From the UHGV virus genome UHGV-1362164: DNA of 39,735 nt; one strand, given 5' to 3'. This document shows positions 16,444 through 21,043 of the stretch, piece after piece (position 1 is the first letter of the stretch; the number at the start of each line of letters is the position of its first letter). The position numbers and the translations under genes were made by a program. Source of the DNA: a virus. Under the pieces are notes generated by a model. That model had not been told where the DNA came from. It saw only the letters and a program-made list of their open reading frames with translations, and searched no databases.

Positions 16444-16628
16444 AAGATCAAGTATCAATGCCAGATGTGCGGGAAGCCATCAAAATGGCAAAAGACATCA
16501 CACCAATAATGAATCAAACAGAATATCTTCAATTGGTCGCATTGTACGCTCGTGTATTAGAACGATATGAAAAAGAGGAATACCCAGACGGGTTGCCAGA
16601 AGAAAAAAGTGCTCCAGATAAATTGTAA
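16440..16628 (+). CDS. Hypothetical protein (62 aa), last gene of the early rightward operon
   Basis: ATGA-coupled, RBS GGAGGACGG. Confidence 0.45.
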   Translation: MKDQVSMPDVREAIKMAKDITPIMNQTEYLQLVALYARVLERYEKEEYPDGLPEEKSAPDKL

Positions 16629-16640
16629 GACCCAGAGCAC
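16609..16640 (-). terminator. Intrinsic terminator for the minus-strand gene 16654..16860 (convergent with the early operon end)
   Basis: GTGCTC...GAGCAC hairpin preceded by an A-run on the plus strand. This reads as hairpin plus U-run on the minus strand. Confidence 0.45.
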
Positions 16641-16653
16641 CGATGAGACAATA

Positions 16654-16860
16654 TCAGTCTTCAATTACAACTCGTTGTACAACAGCCAAGTTAATCAACC
16701 TGGAGTTGCTAGATTGACTATGTCTTACATGAATCCAATTAGGTTCTTCAGGTAGTTCGTTAATAAGTGTGTCAGCGTGGAAGCTATTTCCGCGATCATA
16801 GCGAAATGCAACTTCTTTTCCACTTTTCAAAGTATCAATAATTATTTTTTTAACCATAGT
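16654..16860 (-). CDS. Opposite-strand hypothetical protein (68 aa) with its own promoter; moron-like
   Basis: ATG 16860 after AAGGTGA. Extended -10 TGATATAAT on the minus strand (plus coordinates 16887-16895). Terminator hairpin downstream. Confidence 0.45.
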   Translation of the reverse strand, partial: TMVKKIIIDTLKSGKEVAFRYDRGNSFHADTLINELPEEPNWIHVRHSQSSNSRLINLAVVQRVVIED

Positions 16861-17080
16861 ATATTTCACCTTCTTTCCTAGAAGGATTATATCATTCAAA
16901 ATGCTGAACAGTAAAAGTAATTCCGGTAACTCTAATATTTACGGAGGTGGCTGAATGATCAGCATAGAGAAATTTACTGCATTCTTTTTTTAGGATTTTC
17001 TTATGGTTATTAGTTATGGCCGTCATTGACTACAACAAATATTACAGAAAATAAAGATCCGGTAACCGAAGATATAGCAG

Positions 17081-17580
17081 AAAAAAAGACTGCCACGGTA
17101 TGAAACGGCAGTCAATGAACTATGGATAGCTGATTAGAATAGCTCAAAGATATTTTACCATAAAAATAGACCACTGGGATTAGTCAGTGGTCAGCAAGCT
17201 AGAGAAAGTGACTCTTGTAGTATTAGGAAGATTCGTCTAGCTCTCTTCTATGATACAACAAATGATCAAACAAAAACAGACCGCTGGGGATTGGTCAGCG
17301 GTCGTGAGCTGATTGAAATATGCTTTTAACCCGATTGAAAAAAGGAGGGGCCAGCTCACGTATATTGTACAACAAAAAAAGACAGCCGACCACTGGCTGC
17401 CTAGTGAAAGATTCTCTGTCTAGTTTCCGCTAGACATAAGCATTTTACCATAAAAAGGCCGCTGCATATAAGGAAACAGCGGCTTTGAGCTGGAATTGAA
17501 GTGTGATTGTAAGTTTGTGGGTGTCCAGCTCACCATGTATTATACAACAAAAAAGCACCAAGCGTTCGCTCAATGCTAAA
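17081..17580. repeat. Array of 5-6 degenerate ~100-115-bp tandem units, each an A-tract, a GC stem-loop, a second longer stem-loop and a TACAACAAAAAA/TTACCATAAAAA linker
   Basis: Stem-loops: GACTGCC..GGCAGTC (17088-17112), GACCACTG..CAGTGGTC (17169-17192), GACCGCTG..CAGCGGTC (17279-17303), CAGCC..GGCTG (17385-17400), GCCGCTG..CAGCGGC (17458-17479). Second hairpins: AGCTAG..CTAGCT, GTGAGCTG..CCAGCTCAC, TGTCTAG..CTAGACA, GAGCTGG..CCAGCTCAC. No ORF of 60 aa or more lies in 16900-17445. Confidence 0.6.
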
Positions 17581-17625
17581 AGGATTAACTGGTCATTAAT
17601 CATTATAGCATAAGGAGCGATCGCC

Positions 17626-18042
17626 TTGGAACTGTTTAAAGATATAGATGTTAAAGAAACAAAGCTTAGAGCTAAACGAGTGTTATCAACATACCGTCGT
17701 TTGAGAAGGATCGCAGGACAAGATGAAATAAATTTGCGATCGCCCATTATTACCGATATGCCGAGAACACCGAGTTCGTATACAAATAAGTCAGAAGATG
17801 CTACGTGCATCAGAGTGGATGCTGAAAATGAATTAAAAGCAATAAACGCAGCATTGAATAGAGTATCTCGAATTAGTAGAGAGGTAATATCGATGACCTT
17901 TTGCGAAAACGAAAAACTGACGGCTTTTGCTATCGGTTTGGAGATTGGATACTCAGAACGAAGTATTAAAGATTTGAAGGCACAGGCTCTTTTAGAGTTC
18001 GCAGATGTGTATAGAGATGGAAAATTAATTGTGAAGAAATAA
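17626..18042 (+). CDS. arpU: ArpU-family phage late-gene transcriptional activator
   Basis: 138 aa. The N-terminal FKDIDVKETKLRAKRVLSTYRRLRRI and the C-terminal sigma-region-4-like segment match the ArpU family pattern. RBS TAAGGAG. Confidence 0.8.
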   Translation: MELFKDIDVKETKLRAKRVLSTYRRLRRIAGQDEINLRSPIITDMPRTPSSYTNKSEDATCIRVDAENELKAINAALNRVSRISREVISMTFCENEKLTAFAIGLEIGYSERSIKDLKAQALLEFADVYRDGKLIVKK

Positions 18043-18385
18043 ATTGCCCTTTTTCTGCCCTTTTTGTTCGGAAAAAGGTGCTATGATAGTAGTATCAATT
18101 AGTATGTAGATGGCACACAAAATCAAAAGAAAGAAGTGAATAGCTCCTCTTCCTTTAAAGTTTACGTGCCGTCTATTTATTATTTATTATTGAATATTAT
18201 ATTGAGGATGGTATACAGATGAAGACTTATGAAGAGAAGCTTCAAGAGTTATTAGACAACAAAGAAGCTACACCTATTGAGTGGAGTCAAAGCAACGAAG
18301 AGAAGAAAAATGGTTACACGGAAACGGAAGTTACCTTCAAATACAAAATAAAAACCCCCGTAAAGAAATAGCGGGAGTTCAAACA

Positions 18386-18664
18386 TTAGAATCTCGGCAA
18401 GTTTAACAGATTATCCTTTGTTGTATGATTTGCCCTTGTTCTAATATAGGGCTCCCCGTATGTTGGATGAACTGATTCCACCTGAGCTTTTGAGTAAGCA
18501 GTAGTAGTGTAGTAGTATTCCATATTCATATCTAAGTAACGGACTACTTGTTCTACTGTTTCTATAGTTCCTCCTTCTAATTTTACATGAGTAATTTTGT
18601 CTGTAGAAGTCACGTAATTCTCAGAAGTTCTAATGTGAGTAATTCTGTATGCCATTTTTATCAC
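18386..18664 (-). CDS. DUF3892-family small protein, opposite strand, own promoter and terminator (moron)
   Basis: Motifs YRITHIRTS...ITHVKLEGG...NLLNLPRF fit the DUF3892 pattern. RBS AGGAGGTGA. Minus-strand promoter TTGTCA-16-TATAAT (plus coordinates ~18682-18708). Minus-strand terminator ACTCCCG..CGGGGGT plus a T-run (plus coordinates ~18345-18375). Confidence 0.7.
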   Translation of the reverse strand: MIKMAYRITHIRTSENYVTSTDKITHVKLEGGTIETVEQVVRYLDMNMEYYYTTTAYSKAQVESVHPTYGEPYIRTRANHTTKDNLLNLPRF

Positions 18665-18946
18665 CTCCTAGTATTTATTATACAACGATCGTTATGTTTG
18701 ACAATATAATTATGTCACTGTGGCAGACTGGGGAAATGCAGAGGATATGCACAAGGTGTGTACGACTCGTTAGCAAGGTTAGGATCCTTGCCAGTGACTT
18801 AGGGAGGACTCTACTGCTACTGCATGGAGTATCTGACCCAAAAGAGATTGAGCAATAAGCATGAGGCAATCAGACCACTGAATTATCCCAGGGCTTTTGC
18901 TGGATAAACAATCTCAATAGCATGCTAGGAGGTAGCTCCTCCAAGT

Positions 18947-19022
18947 TGACGTGTAGCATCATTGGTGATGCGTCTGACTGTTAGAGTTGGAAATGAGGTC
19001 GGTTCGAATCTGGCCGCGTCAA
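18947..19022 (+). other. Degenerate tRNA-like element (not a confident tRNA)
   Basis: 7-bp acceptor TGACGTG/CGCGTCA with one G-U. Perfect D stem GCAT/ATGC. Canonical T loop TTCGAAT with a G-U-containing stem GTCGG/CTGGC. Weak anticodon stem CTGAC/GTTGG with loop TGTTAGA (the central triplet would be TTA, but position 33 is G). 7-nt variable region and 2-nt D/anticodon spacer. Confidence 0.25.
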
Positions 19023-19103
19023 TTAATGCAACCGAGGATAGAAGTGGTACGTGGAGGATCAGCACGATGACGGTGCTATGTAGGTTGCTTTATACATAAT
19101 CAA

Positions 19104-19126
19104 GATCGCTTCGGCGGTCTTTTTGT
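19104..19126 (+). terminator. Intrinsic terminator (UUCG-loop hairpin plus T-run) downstream of the tRNA-like element
   Basis: GATCGC-TTCG-GCGGTC followed by TTTTTG. Confidence 0.5.
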
Positions 19127-19192
19127 TATTAGACATAGTTTTGTCTATTTACTTGTAGTATTCTTTATCTAAAAGGGTAAGGAGACAATGAT

Positions 19193-19813
19193 ATGCTATT
19201 AACTTTTCAAAATGTAATTATGCTTCTAATTCTTGGAGCTACAGCAATCATGGGTTATTTTATGAAAGAGCTACCTAAGTTACTAAAAGAGCTAAGAGTT
19301 GAAGAATCAAGAAGTATTAATGAAAAGGATATACAACGAGAAGCTTTTTTTAGACAAATTAAAGGTTCTGAATTAGACGAGGCTTTTTCTTACTGGACAA
19401 GCATGATAGTTGATATGGATAATCAGATGGAAGGTATCACGAGCAAAGAAGGACAAAAAAAGCTTATGGAAATGCAACAAAGGGTATTAATGTATGGTTC
19501 GACTAAAACCGTATTAATTTTATCTTTGATGATGCAGCATGTTTACAAAGGCGATAAATTGGAGAATCGAATAAATGTTGACTTTGGTGTTAAGAACGAT
19601 GAAAAACAAACAATGCAGTCCTATAAGTTGATGTACTACATTGCGTTGCTAATTAGCTCATTGAAGGAAGATTTTACAGGATATAAAATAGGACCCAAAG
19701 ATATTCTAGAAATAAAAATAACTGATATAGATAGCGATAAAAATAAACCCTTGTTTGATAAAGCTAAAAAACAAGTCTTAGATGAAATTAAAAAAAGAGG
19801 GGTGACTATCTAA
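19193..19813 (+). CDS. Membrane-anchored hypothetical protein (N-terminal TM, 206 aa); candidate superinfection-exclusion/abortive-infection moron
   Basis: RBS AAGGAGA. TM at residues ~8-24 (IMLLILGATAIMGYF). Soluble K/E-rich remainder. Sits between arpU and terS, bounded by terminators. Confidence 0.55.
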   Translation: MLLTFQNVIMLLILGATAIMGYFMKELPKLLKELRVEESRSINEKDIQREAFFRQIKGSELDEAFSYWTSMIVDMDNQMEGITSKEGQKKLMEMQQRVLMYGSTKTVLILSLMMQHVYKGDKLENRINVDFGVKNDEKQTMQSYKLMYYIALLISSLKEDFTGYKIGPKDILEIKITDIDSDKNKPLFDKAKKQVLDEIKKRGVTI

Positions 19814-19826
19814 GATAGGAGTAAGT

Positions 19827-19985
19827 ATGTTAACTATAATTTCTGTATTATTTTTATGTATGAAAATATTAGGAATAGTTAATGTGTCATGGAACGTAGT
19901 TCTGTTATGTGAAATTATTTTTCTGTCTGTTTCTTATTTAGAGTTAAGATTGATTTATAAATGGATCGATAAAAGGTTTAAGTGA
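19827..19985 (+). CDS. Small two-TM membrane protein (52 aa), co-transcribed with 19193..19813
   Basis: RBS TAGGAG plus ATG 19827. Sequence MLTIISVLFLCMKILGIVNVSWNVVLLCEIIFLSVSYLELRLIYKWIDKRFK. Confidence 0.4.
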   Translation: MLTIISVLFLCMKILGIVNVSWNVVLLCEIIFLSVSYLELRLIYKWIDKRFK

Positions 19986-19987
19986 GA

Positions 19988-20018
19988 TCACTCATTCGAG
20001 TGGTCTTTTTATTTTGCG
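19988..20018 (+). terminator. Strong intrinsic terminator after the membrane-protein cassette
   Basis: 8-bp stem GATCACTC-ATTC-GAGTGGTC followed by TTTTTATTTT. Confidence 0.6.
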
Positions 20019-20020
20019 CA

Positions 20021-20298
20021 CAAAAATAGACCACTACCGGGTAATAGTGGTCAGGAAATAAATGAAAAAGATGTTAGGGTTGTTAGATGAGTATAACATC
20101 ATAGCGCTTACATAGCAATACAAAAAAAGAGCCACTGTTTCCGCAGCAGCCCTTTAGTGTAACAAGTAAACATAATATATCATCCTTAGTCATGTATTTC
20201 AACACACAAAAATAGACCGCTGTTTCCGCAGCAATCTATCTGTGAAACGTAAACAATTTATGCATAAAGCATGCAATAATAACGCTTACATTGAAACG
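20021..20298. repeat. Three degenerate ~88-98-bp tandem units related to the 17.1-17.6 kb array (each starts ACAAAAA(T)AGACC/AGAGCC plus stem-loop)
   Basis: Unit starts at 20021 (GACCACTA..TAGTGGTC), 20119 (GCCACTGTTTCCGCAGCAG) and 20206 (ACCGCTGTTTCCGCAGCAA). Shared downstream segments GTAAACA and A(A/G)CGCTTACAT. Confidence 0.5.
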
Positions 20299-20315
20299 CA
20301 GAAAGGGATAGAGTA

Positions 20316-20540
20316 ATGAGAACTTACTGGTATGTGTCATTAAACAATAAATATCCGCTGCCGATGAAAGGACAACGTAAACGTGTAGTGATGTCTGTTC
20401 AAATGAAGGCGAAGTATTCAATTGTCGAAATGACCAGAGAGGCAACGCCAGTAGAGATTGATTATTGCAAGCTAGTCTATTGTGGGAACGGATATTGGAA
20501 AGATGAGCATGTGCAGGCGAACATCAAAAAGCATTTATAA
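20316..20540 (+). CDS. Hypothetical small protein upstream of terS (74 aa)
   Basis: RBS AAAGGGATAGAG. No HNH motif seen (checked because HNH genes often sit here). Confidence 0.45.
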   Translation: MRTYWYVSLNNKYPLPMKGQRKRVVMSVQMKAKYSIVEMTREATPVEIDYCKLVYCGNGYWKDEHVQANIKKHL

Positions 20541-20557
20541 GAAAGTGATGGTGGAAA

Positions 20558-21043
20558 ATGAGTAAGTTAAGCATAAAACAACAAGCCTTTGCTGATGAGT
20601 ACATCATCACGGGTAATAAATATCAATCAGCAAGAAAAGCTGGGTATAGTGAGAATTATGCTAAAGGTAATGTTTCGAAATTGTTGGAAAATGAGAGAGT
20701 TAAGAAATATATTGAAGATCGACTAGAGGAAATCCAGAGTGAAAAGATCGCCTCTCAGAAAGAAGTGTTAGAACACTTAACTAGGGTTATGAGGCGAGAG
20801 GAACAAGAGCATCAAGTTGTTACTTTAAGGACAAAGCAAGAGAAGTGGCTCCCTGATGACCAAGGCACCATGAGAAAGCAAACGGTTGAAACCGAAGAAG
20901 CAGAAGTGGTACCTATGCCTACGAGAGTTAGCGATACGAATAAAGCAGCGGAGCTTTTAGGTAAACGCTATGCGATGTGGACTGATAAGCAAGATATTAC
21001 TGCGACTGAAGTAGTCACGATTGTAGATGATGTAGATGACTAA
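20558..21043 (+). CDS. terS: Terminase small subunit (P27/Terminase_2-like)
   Basis: N-terminal LSIKQQAFADEYIITGNKYQSARKAGYSENYA matches the small-terminase HTH pattern. Directly precedes and overlaps terL. Confidence 0.8.
   Translation: MSKLSIKQQAFADEYIITGNKYQSARKAGYSENYAKGNVSKLLENERVKKYIEDRLEEIQSEKIASQKEVLEHLTRVMRREEQEHQVVTLRTKQEKWLPDDQGTMRKQTVETEEAEVVPMPTRVSDTNKAAELLGKRYAMWTDKQDITATEVVTIVDDVDD

Follow-up and report, generated by a model that had tools for sequence, protein, structure and literature searches.

The stretch of viral DNA analyzed here (UHGV virus genome UHGV-1362164, 39,735 nucleotides (nt) in full length; hereafter the window) is an Enterococcus prophage whose gp35/36-like cassette matches the phiFL1 phages. 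Our results largely show that positions 20021-20298, just upstream of orf74 and the small terminase gene terS, carry three tandem minus-strand units (V3, V2 and V1), each consisting of a promoter, a non-coding RNA of 45-65 nt and an intrinsic terminator, and that these are part of the set of prophage small-RNA genes that also includes six units located at 17.1-17.6 kb, upstream of the late activator gene arpU. The initial annotation had described both places as repeat arrays; the feature is real but was read on the wrong strand. It is kin to phage antisense RNAs and to sibling small RNAs (sRNAs), and it includes a new RNA family. This provides a testable link between an RNA family and the control of late genes.

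Minus-strand terminators and predicted promoters in the repeat units

The repeat observation itself was confirmed in part. Three units do start at approximately 20021, 20119 and 20206, with spacings of 98 and 87 base pairs (bp), and their cores, formed by an A-run and a hairpin, start at about 20022, 20123 and 20208, with similar cores at 17162 and 17272. The motif AAAAATAGACCRCT is present with 0-1 mismatch at 17162, 17272, 20022 and 20208; when up to 2 mismatches were allowed, the window contained 8 matches compared to 0.9 expected, and 0 shuffles reached 8. The likeness reported between V1 and the unit at 17162 was also found, with AAAAATAGACCACT...AGTGGTC common to both. However, the units are not ordinary "~90-bp repeats": the recurring part is the ~30-nt A-run and hairpin plus patches, V2 and V3 being 71% alike over 41 nt and V1 and V3 76% over 29 nt. 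Because the copies are too divergent, Tandem Repeats Finder reported no array in this region.

The repeats have to be read on the other strand. Reverse-complemented, AAAAATAGACCRCTG...CAGYGGTC reads as an intrinsic terminator, with a GC hairpin and a U-run. In a consensus scan, 15 terminator-like sites were detected in 16600-20600 compared to 2.2 expected, at least 10 of them on the minus strand and including those of the three V units (Table 1); our own terminator finder added 17303-17279 and 17483-17458. On the minus strand, a GC hairpin is directly followed by a U-run in the three V hairpins and in the six hairpins of the 17-kb array, while in a plus-strand reading the hairpin comes after the A-run and its stem loses the G-U pairs. 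In support of this, the mean energy of the nine array hairpins is -12.7 kcal/mol on the minus strand versus -9.9 on the plus strand, and the hairpins at 17577, 20155 and 20241 rely on G-U pairs that are A-C mismatches on the plus strand. The V1 RNA folds with -13.4 kcal/mol (z -4.1 on the minus strand versus z -1.8 on the plus strand), and the V2 hairpin has a free energy of -14.6 on the minus strand versus -6.7 on the plus strand, with z -3.3 for the V2 RNA. That the repeats are the minus-strand terminators of self-contained mini-genes is thus shown or strongly supported.

A minus-strand promoter-like site lies 45-75 nt upstream of each terminator. We looked for an extended -10 of the sigma-A type (a TGnTATAAT-like box, with or without a -35, located 40-90 nt upstream of the terminator), and both V1 and V2 carry one, with scores of 9-10 of 12. 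At 17 kb, the arpU-proximal unit (unit P) and two further units have TGNTANAAT, and three others combine GTTG with TATAAT, TACAAT or TATCAT; in this array TGNTANAAT occurs 3 times on the minus strand versus 0 on the plus strand, and TANAAT 6 times versus 1. The same association was observed in 13 arpU loci, where TGNTANAAT is located 20-100 nt upstream of 34% of 80 distinct minus-strand terminators, compared to 3% at random minus-strand positions (P ~1e-19) and 0% of 36 plus-strand terminators (P ~1e-5). In many units no gap separates the U-run of a terminator from the -10 of the following unit. With lengths of 50-89 nt, the predicted RNAs gave folding z-scores from -2.2 to -6.2, and the small open reading frames (ORFs) within the units have no conserved start codon or ribosome-binding site; by eye, V1 holds a 17-codon plus-strand ORF.

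Table 1. Coordinates of the units and of neighbouring features in the window
Feature	Position	Strand	Details
Unit P, arpU-proximal	17548..17610	-	extended -10 TGCTATAAT 17610-17602, abutting the arpU ribosome-binding site
Unit P, RNA and terminator	17577-17554 (terminator)	-	RNA of ~50 nt; three G-U pairs in the terminator
Five further tandem units	17452-17548, 17373-17450, 17271-17373, 17162-17259, 17081-17160	-	each with a -10 and a terminator
-10 boxes of these units	17548-17539, 17450-17442, 17373-17364	-	GTTGTATAAT, TGGTAAAAT and GTTGTACAAT, respectively
-10 boxes of these units	17259-17250, 17160-17152	-	GTTGTATCAT and TGGTAAAAT, respectively
arpU, late transcriptional activator	17626..18042	+	weak Sigma70_r4 match
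Probable ArpU-binding direct repeats	18045..18065	+	TGCCCTTTTT twice, directly after the arpU stop
-10-like TATGAT	18084-18089	+	3' of the TGCCCTTTTT repeats
Solitary decayed copy	18873..18903	+	reverse complement of the 17169-17192 terminator hairpin
Convergent terminator	19984..20007	+	ends the gp35/gp36-like membrane cassette; back-to-back with the V1 terminator
V1	20022..20118	-	TTGCTA 20118-20113, 17-nt spacer, TATACT 20095-20090, TG 20098-20097
V1, RNA and terminator	~20084-20022 (predicted RNA)	-	stem 20052-20029, then UAUUUUU; consensus scan and terminator finder
V2	20119..20202	-	TTGAAA 20202-20197, 17-nt spacer, TATATT 20179-20174, with TG
V2, RNA and terminator	~20168-20119 (predicted RNA)	-	terminator 20155-20126, CGGAAA loop, G-U pairs, then U-run
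V3, proximal to orf74	20204..20290	-	conserved block TGTAAGCG 20290-20283; weak -10
V3, -10 candidates	20276-20268 or 20260-20255	-	TTGCATGCT or TAAATT, respectively
V3, terminator	20241-20210	-	CGGAAA loop, then U-run
orf74 (74 amino acids, no Pfam match)	20316-20540	+	followed by terS (20558-21043); first genes of the packaging operon

Other kinds of repeat were tried and rejected. Units that are at most ~75% alike, each with its own terminator, do not correspond to a type III toxin-antitoxin (ToxI-like) array, a CRISPR-like array or solitary repeats; for the ToxI-like and CRISPR-like readings, note also that Tandem Repeats Finder returned nothing and that no toxin-like ORF adjoins the units. 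Megablast of 16600-20600 against GenBank phages gave no match, and in a distant blastn of the same segment against phages only the gp35/36 cassette of phiFL1 matched; at this level of sensitivity, therefore, known phages offer no spacer-like match to the loops. A scan of genome contigs with the 206-amino-acid (aa) protein of the cassette gave no match either.

A structured RNA family and its relatives

The five further units of the 17-kb array have predicted RNAs of 65-90 nt. In four of them (type A), the terminator is preceded by a common 5' hairpin, GAGCUrG...CyAGCUC, whose loop is large (25-45 nt) and C/U-rich; the remaining one, at 17373-17441, is Ref1C-like (type B). RNAalifold on 10 units gave the 5' hairpin and the terminator, with compensatory changes in 7 of the 15 pairs. 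A covariance model of these larger, type-A units (R1, with matches counted at E ≤1) produced 155 matches in 81 sources among related Enterococcus prophage contigs, and in the 17-kb array it matched 17271-17359 (76.6 bits), 17161-17245 (67.5), 17449-17533 (58.8) and 17080-17147 (41.8). In the alignment of the R1 matches, which was fitted to the model, 96.4% of the cells are paired and double changes occur in 14 of the 15 pairs; the double-change cells numbered 155 versus 42 in shuffles, and slid controls collapsed. The same alignment contains 67 G-U cells versus 33 non-standard cells, which favours the minus strand. It is thus shown or strongly supported that the larger units form a structured, multi-copy RNA family. 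This family, with 1 to ~10 units per locus or phage, is absent from Rfam and is now defined. A multi-copy sRNA family had been one of the options of the initial annotation, and both the promoter and terminator of each unit and the RNA covariation support it, although on the strand opposite to that which had been read.

The V units have another design, a single-stranded 5' tail followed by the terminator. R1 did not match V2 or V3, and its weak match to V1 (30.1 bits) borrows promoter sequence, V1 having no 5' hairpin. The V units therefore represent a shorter design and are not true type-A members.

The type-B unit resembles Ref1C (Rfam RF02845, "Enterococcus sRNA 1C"), which has been described as a single core-genome sRNA of unknown function and not as a phage array (PMC3074167). 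In E. faecalis V583, Fouquier d'Herouel et al. 2011 mapped Ref1C by 5'tagRACE and detected it on northern blots as a discrete RNA (PMC3074167). The unit at 17373-17441 aligns end to end with the Ref1C model and has its architecture: a hairpin with a GCGGAAA(A) loop, then the terminator CAGCCAGUGGUCGGCUG, with the CCAGUGGUCGG loop region, and a U-run. Its score (17374-17485, 29.2 bits, E 0.19) is below the gathering score of 90, so it falls outside the family as Rfam delimits it. V2 and V3 differ in sharing the CGGAAA loop only, inside their terminators, and the Ref1C model matched neither V1-V3 nor the type-A units. At the gathering threshold, Rfam returned the host tRNA-Met only; at E ≤5, the mir-627, GibS and suhB matches were discarded as chance hairpins, the weak Ref1C match being the only relevant one.

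Two relatives, both prophage contigs, are above the Ref1C threshold (L099, 129 bits; L084, 93.7 bits). In L099 the copy lies upstream of arpU and in L084 upstream of a small late ORF, in both cases on the opposite strand. When the Ref1C region of L099 was compared with phages by blastn, nothing matched. Moreover, the 17-mer CAGCCAGUGGUCGGCUG is present in 68 viral contigs, nearly always opposite to and upstream of arpU, orf74 or terS (35 contigs with recognisable genes). The expression of Ref1C means that at least one relative of the window units is made as an RNA. As for Ref1C, it seems to be a prophage sRNA, which places this orphan sRNA in a phage context.

In phiFL1A (L001), 2705-2683 is a minus-strand terminator of the type-B/Ref1C kind, and the minus-strand coding sequence gp33 (2631-2822, annotated as "hypothetical protein") overlaps it. 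Judging from these coordinates, gp33 may be a mis-annotated sRNA region, and it is a possible example of units annotated as small hypothetical ORFs.

Units of the same architecture (TGnTATAAT, an RNA of ~60 nt and a terminator) but of different sequence exist in lactococcal phages. A TP901-1-like Lactococcus contig (L020, 3500-4300) carries 5-6 tandem units upstream of alt, and TP901-1 (L151, NC_002747, 1010-1800) carries one minus-strand unit head-to-head with each of ORF27, ORF28 and alt; the TP901-1 units had no family match in Rfam. The terminator loops of the lactococcal units (UUGGUCA) are complementary to the predicted 5' ends of the RNAs (GACCA). According to the accessible part of a differential RNA sequencing study of L. 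lactis MG1363, the prophages of this strain are enriched in short antisense RNAs and in sRNAs of unknown function, and ~70-nt RNAs from prophage intergenic regions were mapped and seen on northern blots (PMC4829306). The same part of this work, by van der Meulen et al. 2016, proposes that prophage antisense transcripts suppress harmful induction, and mentions for these RNAs neither a family nor a tandem organisation nor a late-activator link (PMC4829306).

Conserved placement and possible roles of the units

Both the orientation and the position of the units relative to arpU and to orf74-terS are conserved while the neighbours vary, and we consider this shown or strongly supported. Homologues of arpU that are 77-86% identical were found in E. 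malodoratus, E. xiangfangensis and E. hermanniensis (86% in these three) as well as in Ca. E. ferrettii, and others with 34-49% identity in E. songbeiensis, E. entomosocium and Companilactobacillus keshanensis. Wherever an Enterococcus arpU locus extends far enough upstream, one to several minus-strand terminators lie 5' of arpU, arranged as tandem arrays in the close relatives. A counterpart of unit P, with its terminator 68-82 nt upstream of the arpU start and its TGnTATAAT promoter adjoining the complement of the ribosome-binding site, is present in Enterococcus (L066-L081) and in Companilactobacillus (L082); phiFL1A has the same unit, with the terminator at -18. In every arpU-type locus examined in full, as well as in TP901-1 and L020, a unit stands head-to-head with arpU or alt. 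Among the R1 matches, 133 of 134 are opposite to arpU, orf74 or terS (30 orientable loci), and the distance to a downstream arpU is at most 3 kb for 78 of 101.

The 20-kb array behaves in the same way. V3-V2-V1 is conserved at ~90% or more in L106, L145, L139, L085, L135, L095 and L142, and a single V unit is present in L132, L108 and L088. We found the V2/V3-type terminator CTGCGGAAACAGYGGTCTA in 29 viral contigs; it invariably faces orf74/terS from the other strand, at a distance of 65-100 nt on the upstream side of orf74, and most copies have a perfect TGATATAAT ~45 nt upstream. On the cargo side of the array, the relatives have three alternative plus-strand terminators at the junction marked by the convergent terminator of the window, and a plus-strand terminator closely resembling that of the window recurs upstream of terS/orf74 in many related loci. 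On the other side comes the 74-aa ORF and then one of four small-terminase types: Terminase_2, two HTH_Tnp_1_2-like proteins (118 and 142 aa) or Phage_terminase PF10668. Similarly, 0 to ~2.1 kb of cargo separates the distal and proximal arrays upstream of arpU in the relatives. The orf74 product, which is 51-85% identical across loci and is encoded directly upstream of at least four unrelated small-terminase types, looks like the fixed first gene of the late operon.

Since the units are conserved while their neighbours change, they coincide with mosaic junctions. This explains why such "repeats" mark these junctions and is useful for prophage annotation. The initial annotation had predicted that cargo would vary between retained repeats if these were recombination hot-spots. 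The variation came out as predicted, with three cargo-side terminators and four TerS types beside kept arrays, but that the arrays exist for recombination is not thereby shown. A related explanation, which we consider unlikely, is that the units are passive boundary debris, the leftover promoters and terminators of lost reverse morons, kept as linkers that promote cargo exchange. The differing cargo on both sides of the conserved arrays would fit, as would the nearby reverse morons with promoters and terminators of the same kind (an 81-aa ORF at 16654-16899 and DUF3892 at 18386-18664) and a decayed, inverted copy at 18873, which shows that units move and erode. Debris, however, would not keep perfect TGnTATAAT boxes or compensatory changes in a 5' hairpin that is not part of the terminator, nor would it hold the same head-to-head place at arpU/alt in Enterococcus, Companilactobacillus and Lactococcus alike.

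The 81-aa reverse ORF has no Pfam match and is flanked by a promoter, TTTACT-18-TATAAT (16915-16886), and a terminator (16641-16608). The series of minus-strand units begins with this ORF, which is in convergent overlap with the end of the early operon.

The variety of small terminases also bears on the possibility, in our opinion very improbable, that the arrays are DNA repeats bound by a protein, which would be either the terminase (at a pac site like pacL of SPP1) or ArpU (at boxes of the late promoter). The V array is indeed located just upstream of terS, and the Ltr activators bind direct repeats (PMC3753634). However, because the V array is kept beside four unrelated TerS types, a TerS-specific pac site is excluded, while the covariation of the stems and their G-U pairs indicate RNA. 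ArpU-type boxes are found elsewhere, at 18045-18065, and TGCCCTT was not found in or beside the V array. As a candidate for the binding repeats of Ltr proteins (ArpU/RinA), the V array was rejected, not having the form of about three direct repeats followed by a -10. The packaging genes are as had been assumed (TerS is Pfam Terminase_2 and TerL Terminase_3), and the earlier rejection of cos or pac repeats is consistent with an array that does not depend on the TerS type.

What do the units do? We lean, with some reserve, towards the view that the minus-strand sRNA units act as cis-antisense or convergent-transcription locks on arpU and on the late operon. Both arrays would be transcribed against the lytic direction. 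No plus-strand promoter-like or terminator-like site was found between the early genes and arpU, so arpU is probably reached by read-through across the 17-kb array; this array lies within a promoter-less leader of ~870 nt that early transcription must cross to reach arpU, and the 20-kb array lies between the last cargo terminator and orf74-terS. The array promoters would fire head-on into the incoming plus-strand polymerases, and would produce stable, hairpin-capped RNAs perfectly complementary to the plus-strand leaders. In the lysogen, such locks could silence leaky expression of the late activator and of the late operon; after induction, late expression would be delayed until strong early transcription overrides them. 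What speaks for this role is the geometry of the loci, with the units on the opposite strand (133/134) and head-to-head with arpU, alt or orf74, as read from sequence.

Several points weigh against such locks. The promoters and the RNA ends of the window units are predictions, and the V3 -10 is degenerate in the window (TTGCATGCT versus TGATATAAT in the relatives), so that V3 does not carry the extended -10. The V units lack the 5' hairpin, and their link to the 17-kb family rests on the terminator and the promoter architecture. Late transcripts starting just after arpU would have to pass the plus-strand terminators at 19102 and 19984 ahead of the V array, which this scheme does not account for. 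The related loci were all retrieved via phage genes or contigs, and the restriction of the units to these positions may be partly sampling. Finally, the selection on the 5' hairpin and on the loop motifs suggests more than passive interference, and action in trans fits too.

Action in trans is a possible, if rather doubtful, alternative: the units would be sibling sRNAs whose C/U-rich loops or tails (e.g. CCCCUCCUUUUUU) pair with the Shine-Dalgarno regions of host or phage messenger RNAs (mRNAs), and their position and orientation would merely reflect where morons are tolerated. LhrC1-5, RsaE/RoxS and the streptococcal csRNAs are the trans-acting RNAs to which they would compare. A conserved scaffold (5' stem and terminator) with covariation, G-poor loops of 30-45 nt with CCC/UCC motifs, a copy number of 1 to ~10 per phage and the accumulation of Ref1C as a discrete RNA are all consistent with it. 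Against this, in a duplex scan the nine RNAs performed no better than shuffled RNAs on the 101 translation-initiation regions of the window, and trans action does not require the strict orientation (133/134) or the head-to-head placement at arpU, alt and orf74. We regard as quite unlikely, though of interest, an extended version of action in trans in which the units form an sRNA battery, the scaffold presenting hypervariable C/U-rich loops of 30-45 nt as exchangeable trans repressors of host or rival-phage mRNAs. If true, this would be an RNA-based host takeover or superinfection exclusion, with a repertoire (1 to ~10 units per phage) that evolves by duplication, loss and exchange of units, and Enterococcus and Lactococcus phages would have come to this design by parallel evolution.

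The Listeria LhrC1-5 sRNAs are encoded on the chromosome, controlled by LisRK, and act in trans on envelope mRNAs. Like them, the window units are tandem paralogous sRNA genes, each with its own promoter and terminator, and with C/U-rich single-stranded motifs; they differ in being prophage-borne and in a fixed antisense position relative to late-gene leaders, and no trans target was found for them in the scan of the window. Closer in placement are paQ of lambda, which is antisense to Q, sar of P22, c4 of P1/P7 and the convergent-promoter interference of coliphage 186. All of them oppose the transcript leading to late or lytic functions with an antisense promoter or RNA, and the expected role, to stabilise lysogeny or to set timing, would be common to them and to the window units. 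Those systems, however, are single antisense RNAs or promoters of Gram-negative phages, while the arrays described here contain 3-10 self-terminated units with a structured scaffold, in Lactobacillales phages and upstream of Ltr-type activators.

A replication origin with primer or activator transcripts, for which the untranslated ori transcript of the lactococcal phage c2 would be the precedent, is hardly tenable. Each genome has the units at two or three distinct sites, and the V array is in the late leader; the copy number of the units varies from 1 to 10, and they contain neither iterons nor an AT-rich unwinding element.

In temperate Gram-positive phages, the Ltr activators (ArpU, RinA and Alt) act as master switches of packaging and lysis. 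The accessible part of the work on ltr places it under cI control, without resolving the transcription units, and does not address how the activator is kept silent in lysogens or timed after induction (PMC3753634). Locks formed by the minus-strand units are a candidate control for both: in several Enterococcus species, the units occupy the leaders of both arpU and the late operon, and TP901-1 has a unit of this design beside alt.

The probable late promoter and the interval between arpU and terS

The segment 18045..18089 is likely, from its layout, to be the late promoter. For ArpU of phiFL2A, the arrangement of the Ltr box, with repeats after the activator gene and then a -10, was shown experimentally (PMC3753634); the TGCCCTTTTT repeats and TATGAT of the window match it, and the design is conserved across the relatives. 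A late promoter at this site would put the tRNA-like module, the membrane cassette, two plus-strand terminators and the V array in the late leader. Just downstream, a long, imperfect hairpin on the plus strand (18107-18190) carries a U-rich tail and is probably the terminator of arpU.

A lone degenerate copy of the repeat had been reported in this interval. It is real (18873-18891 has 2 mismatches to the 19-mer, with a chance expectation of 0.00), but it is inverted relative to the arrays. This copy has no A-run, its 3' arm is broken and it gives no folding signal (z -1.16); it lies inside an insertion of ~75 nt relative to L068.

The lone copy is surrounded by other non-coding cargo. A plus-strand module of ~400 nt (18715-19125), conserved and common to L068, L069 and L070, holds GTCACTGTGGC..., GCTAGGAGGTAGCTCCTCC, GACGTGTAGC with a tRNA-like segment, and GCAACCGAGG. 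A second segment resembling a T-arm lies at ~18772-18800, and the module ends in a plus-strand terminator (19102-19121). Rfam gave no family match for this module. ARAGORN called a transfer RNA (tRNA) at 18946-19023 on the plus strand, with the anticodon UUA, which would read the UAA stop. This element is the positional homologue of a normal tRNA-Lys(UUU) in L068 (4875-4949), and the Rfam tRNA model did not match 18946-19023 even at E ≤5; instead of an ochre suppressor, it may represent a degenerate tRNA-like element. In other relatives, a ROOL RNA (222 bits) lies downstream of arpU (L091, 1175-1706), and an RNA of the rli28 family (133 bits) between arpU and a small late ORF (L085, 9019-9198). 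The arpU-terS interval appears to be a hotspot for non-coding RNA cargo.

Finally, many Enterococcus and Lactococcus phages (L002-L065) have a strongly conserved plus-strand hairpin with a U-run ~50 nt upstream of terS/orf74, for example AGATCACTC..GAGTGGTCTTTTTATTTTG and AGGTTGTCCA.TGGGCAGCCTTTTATTG. Because a terminator before the first late gene would be odd if the late promoter lies upstream, this hairpin may be an attenuator.

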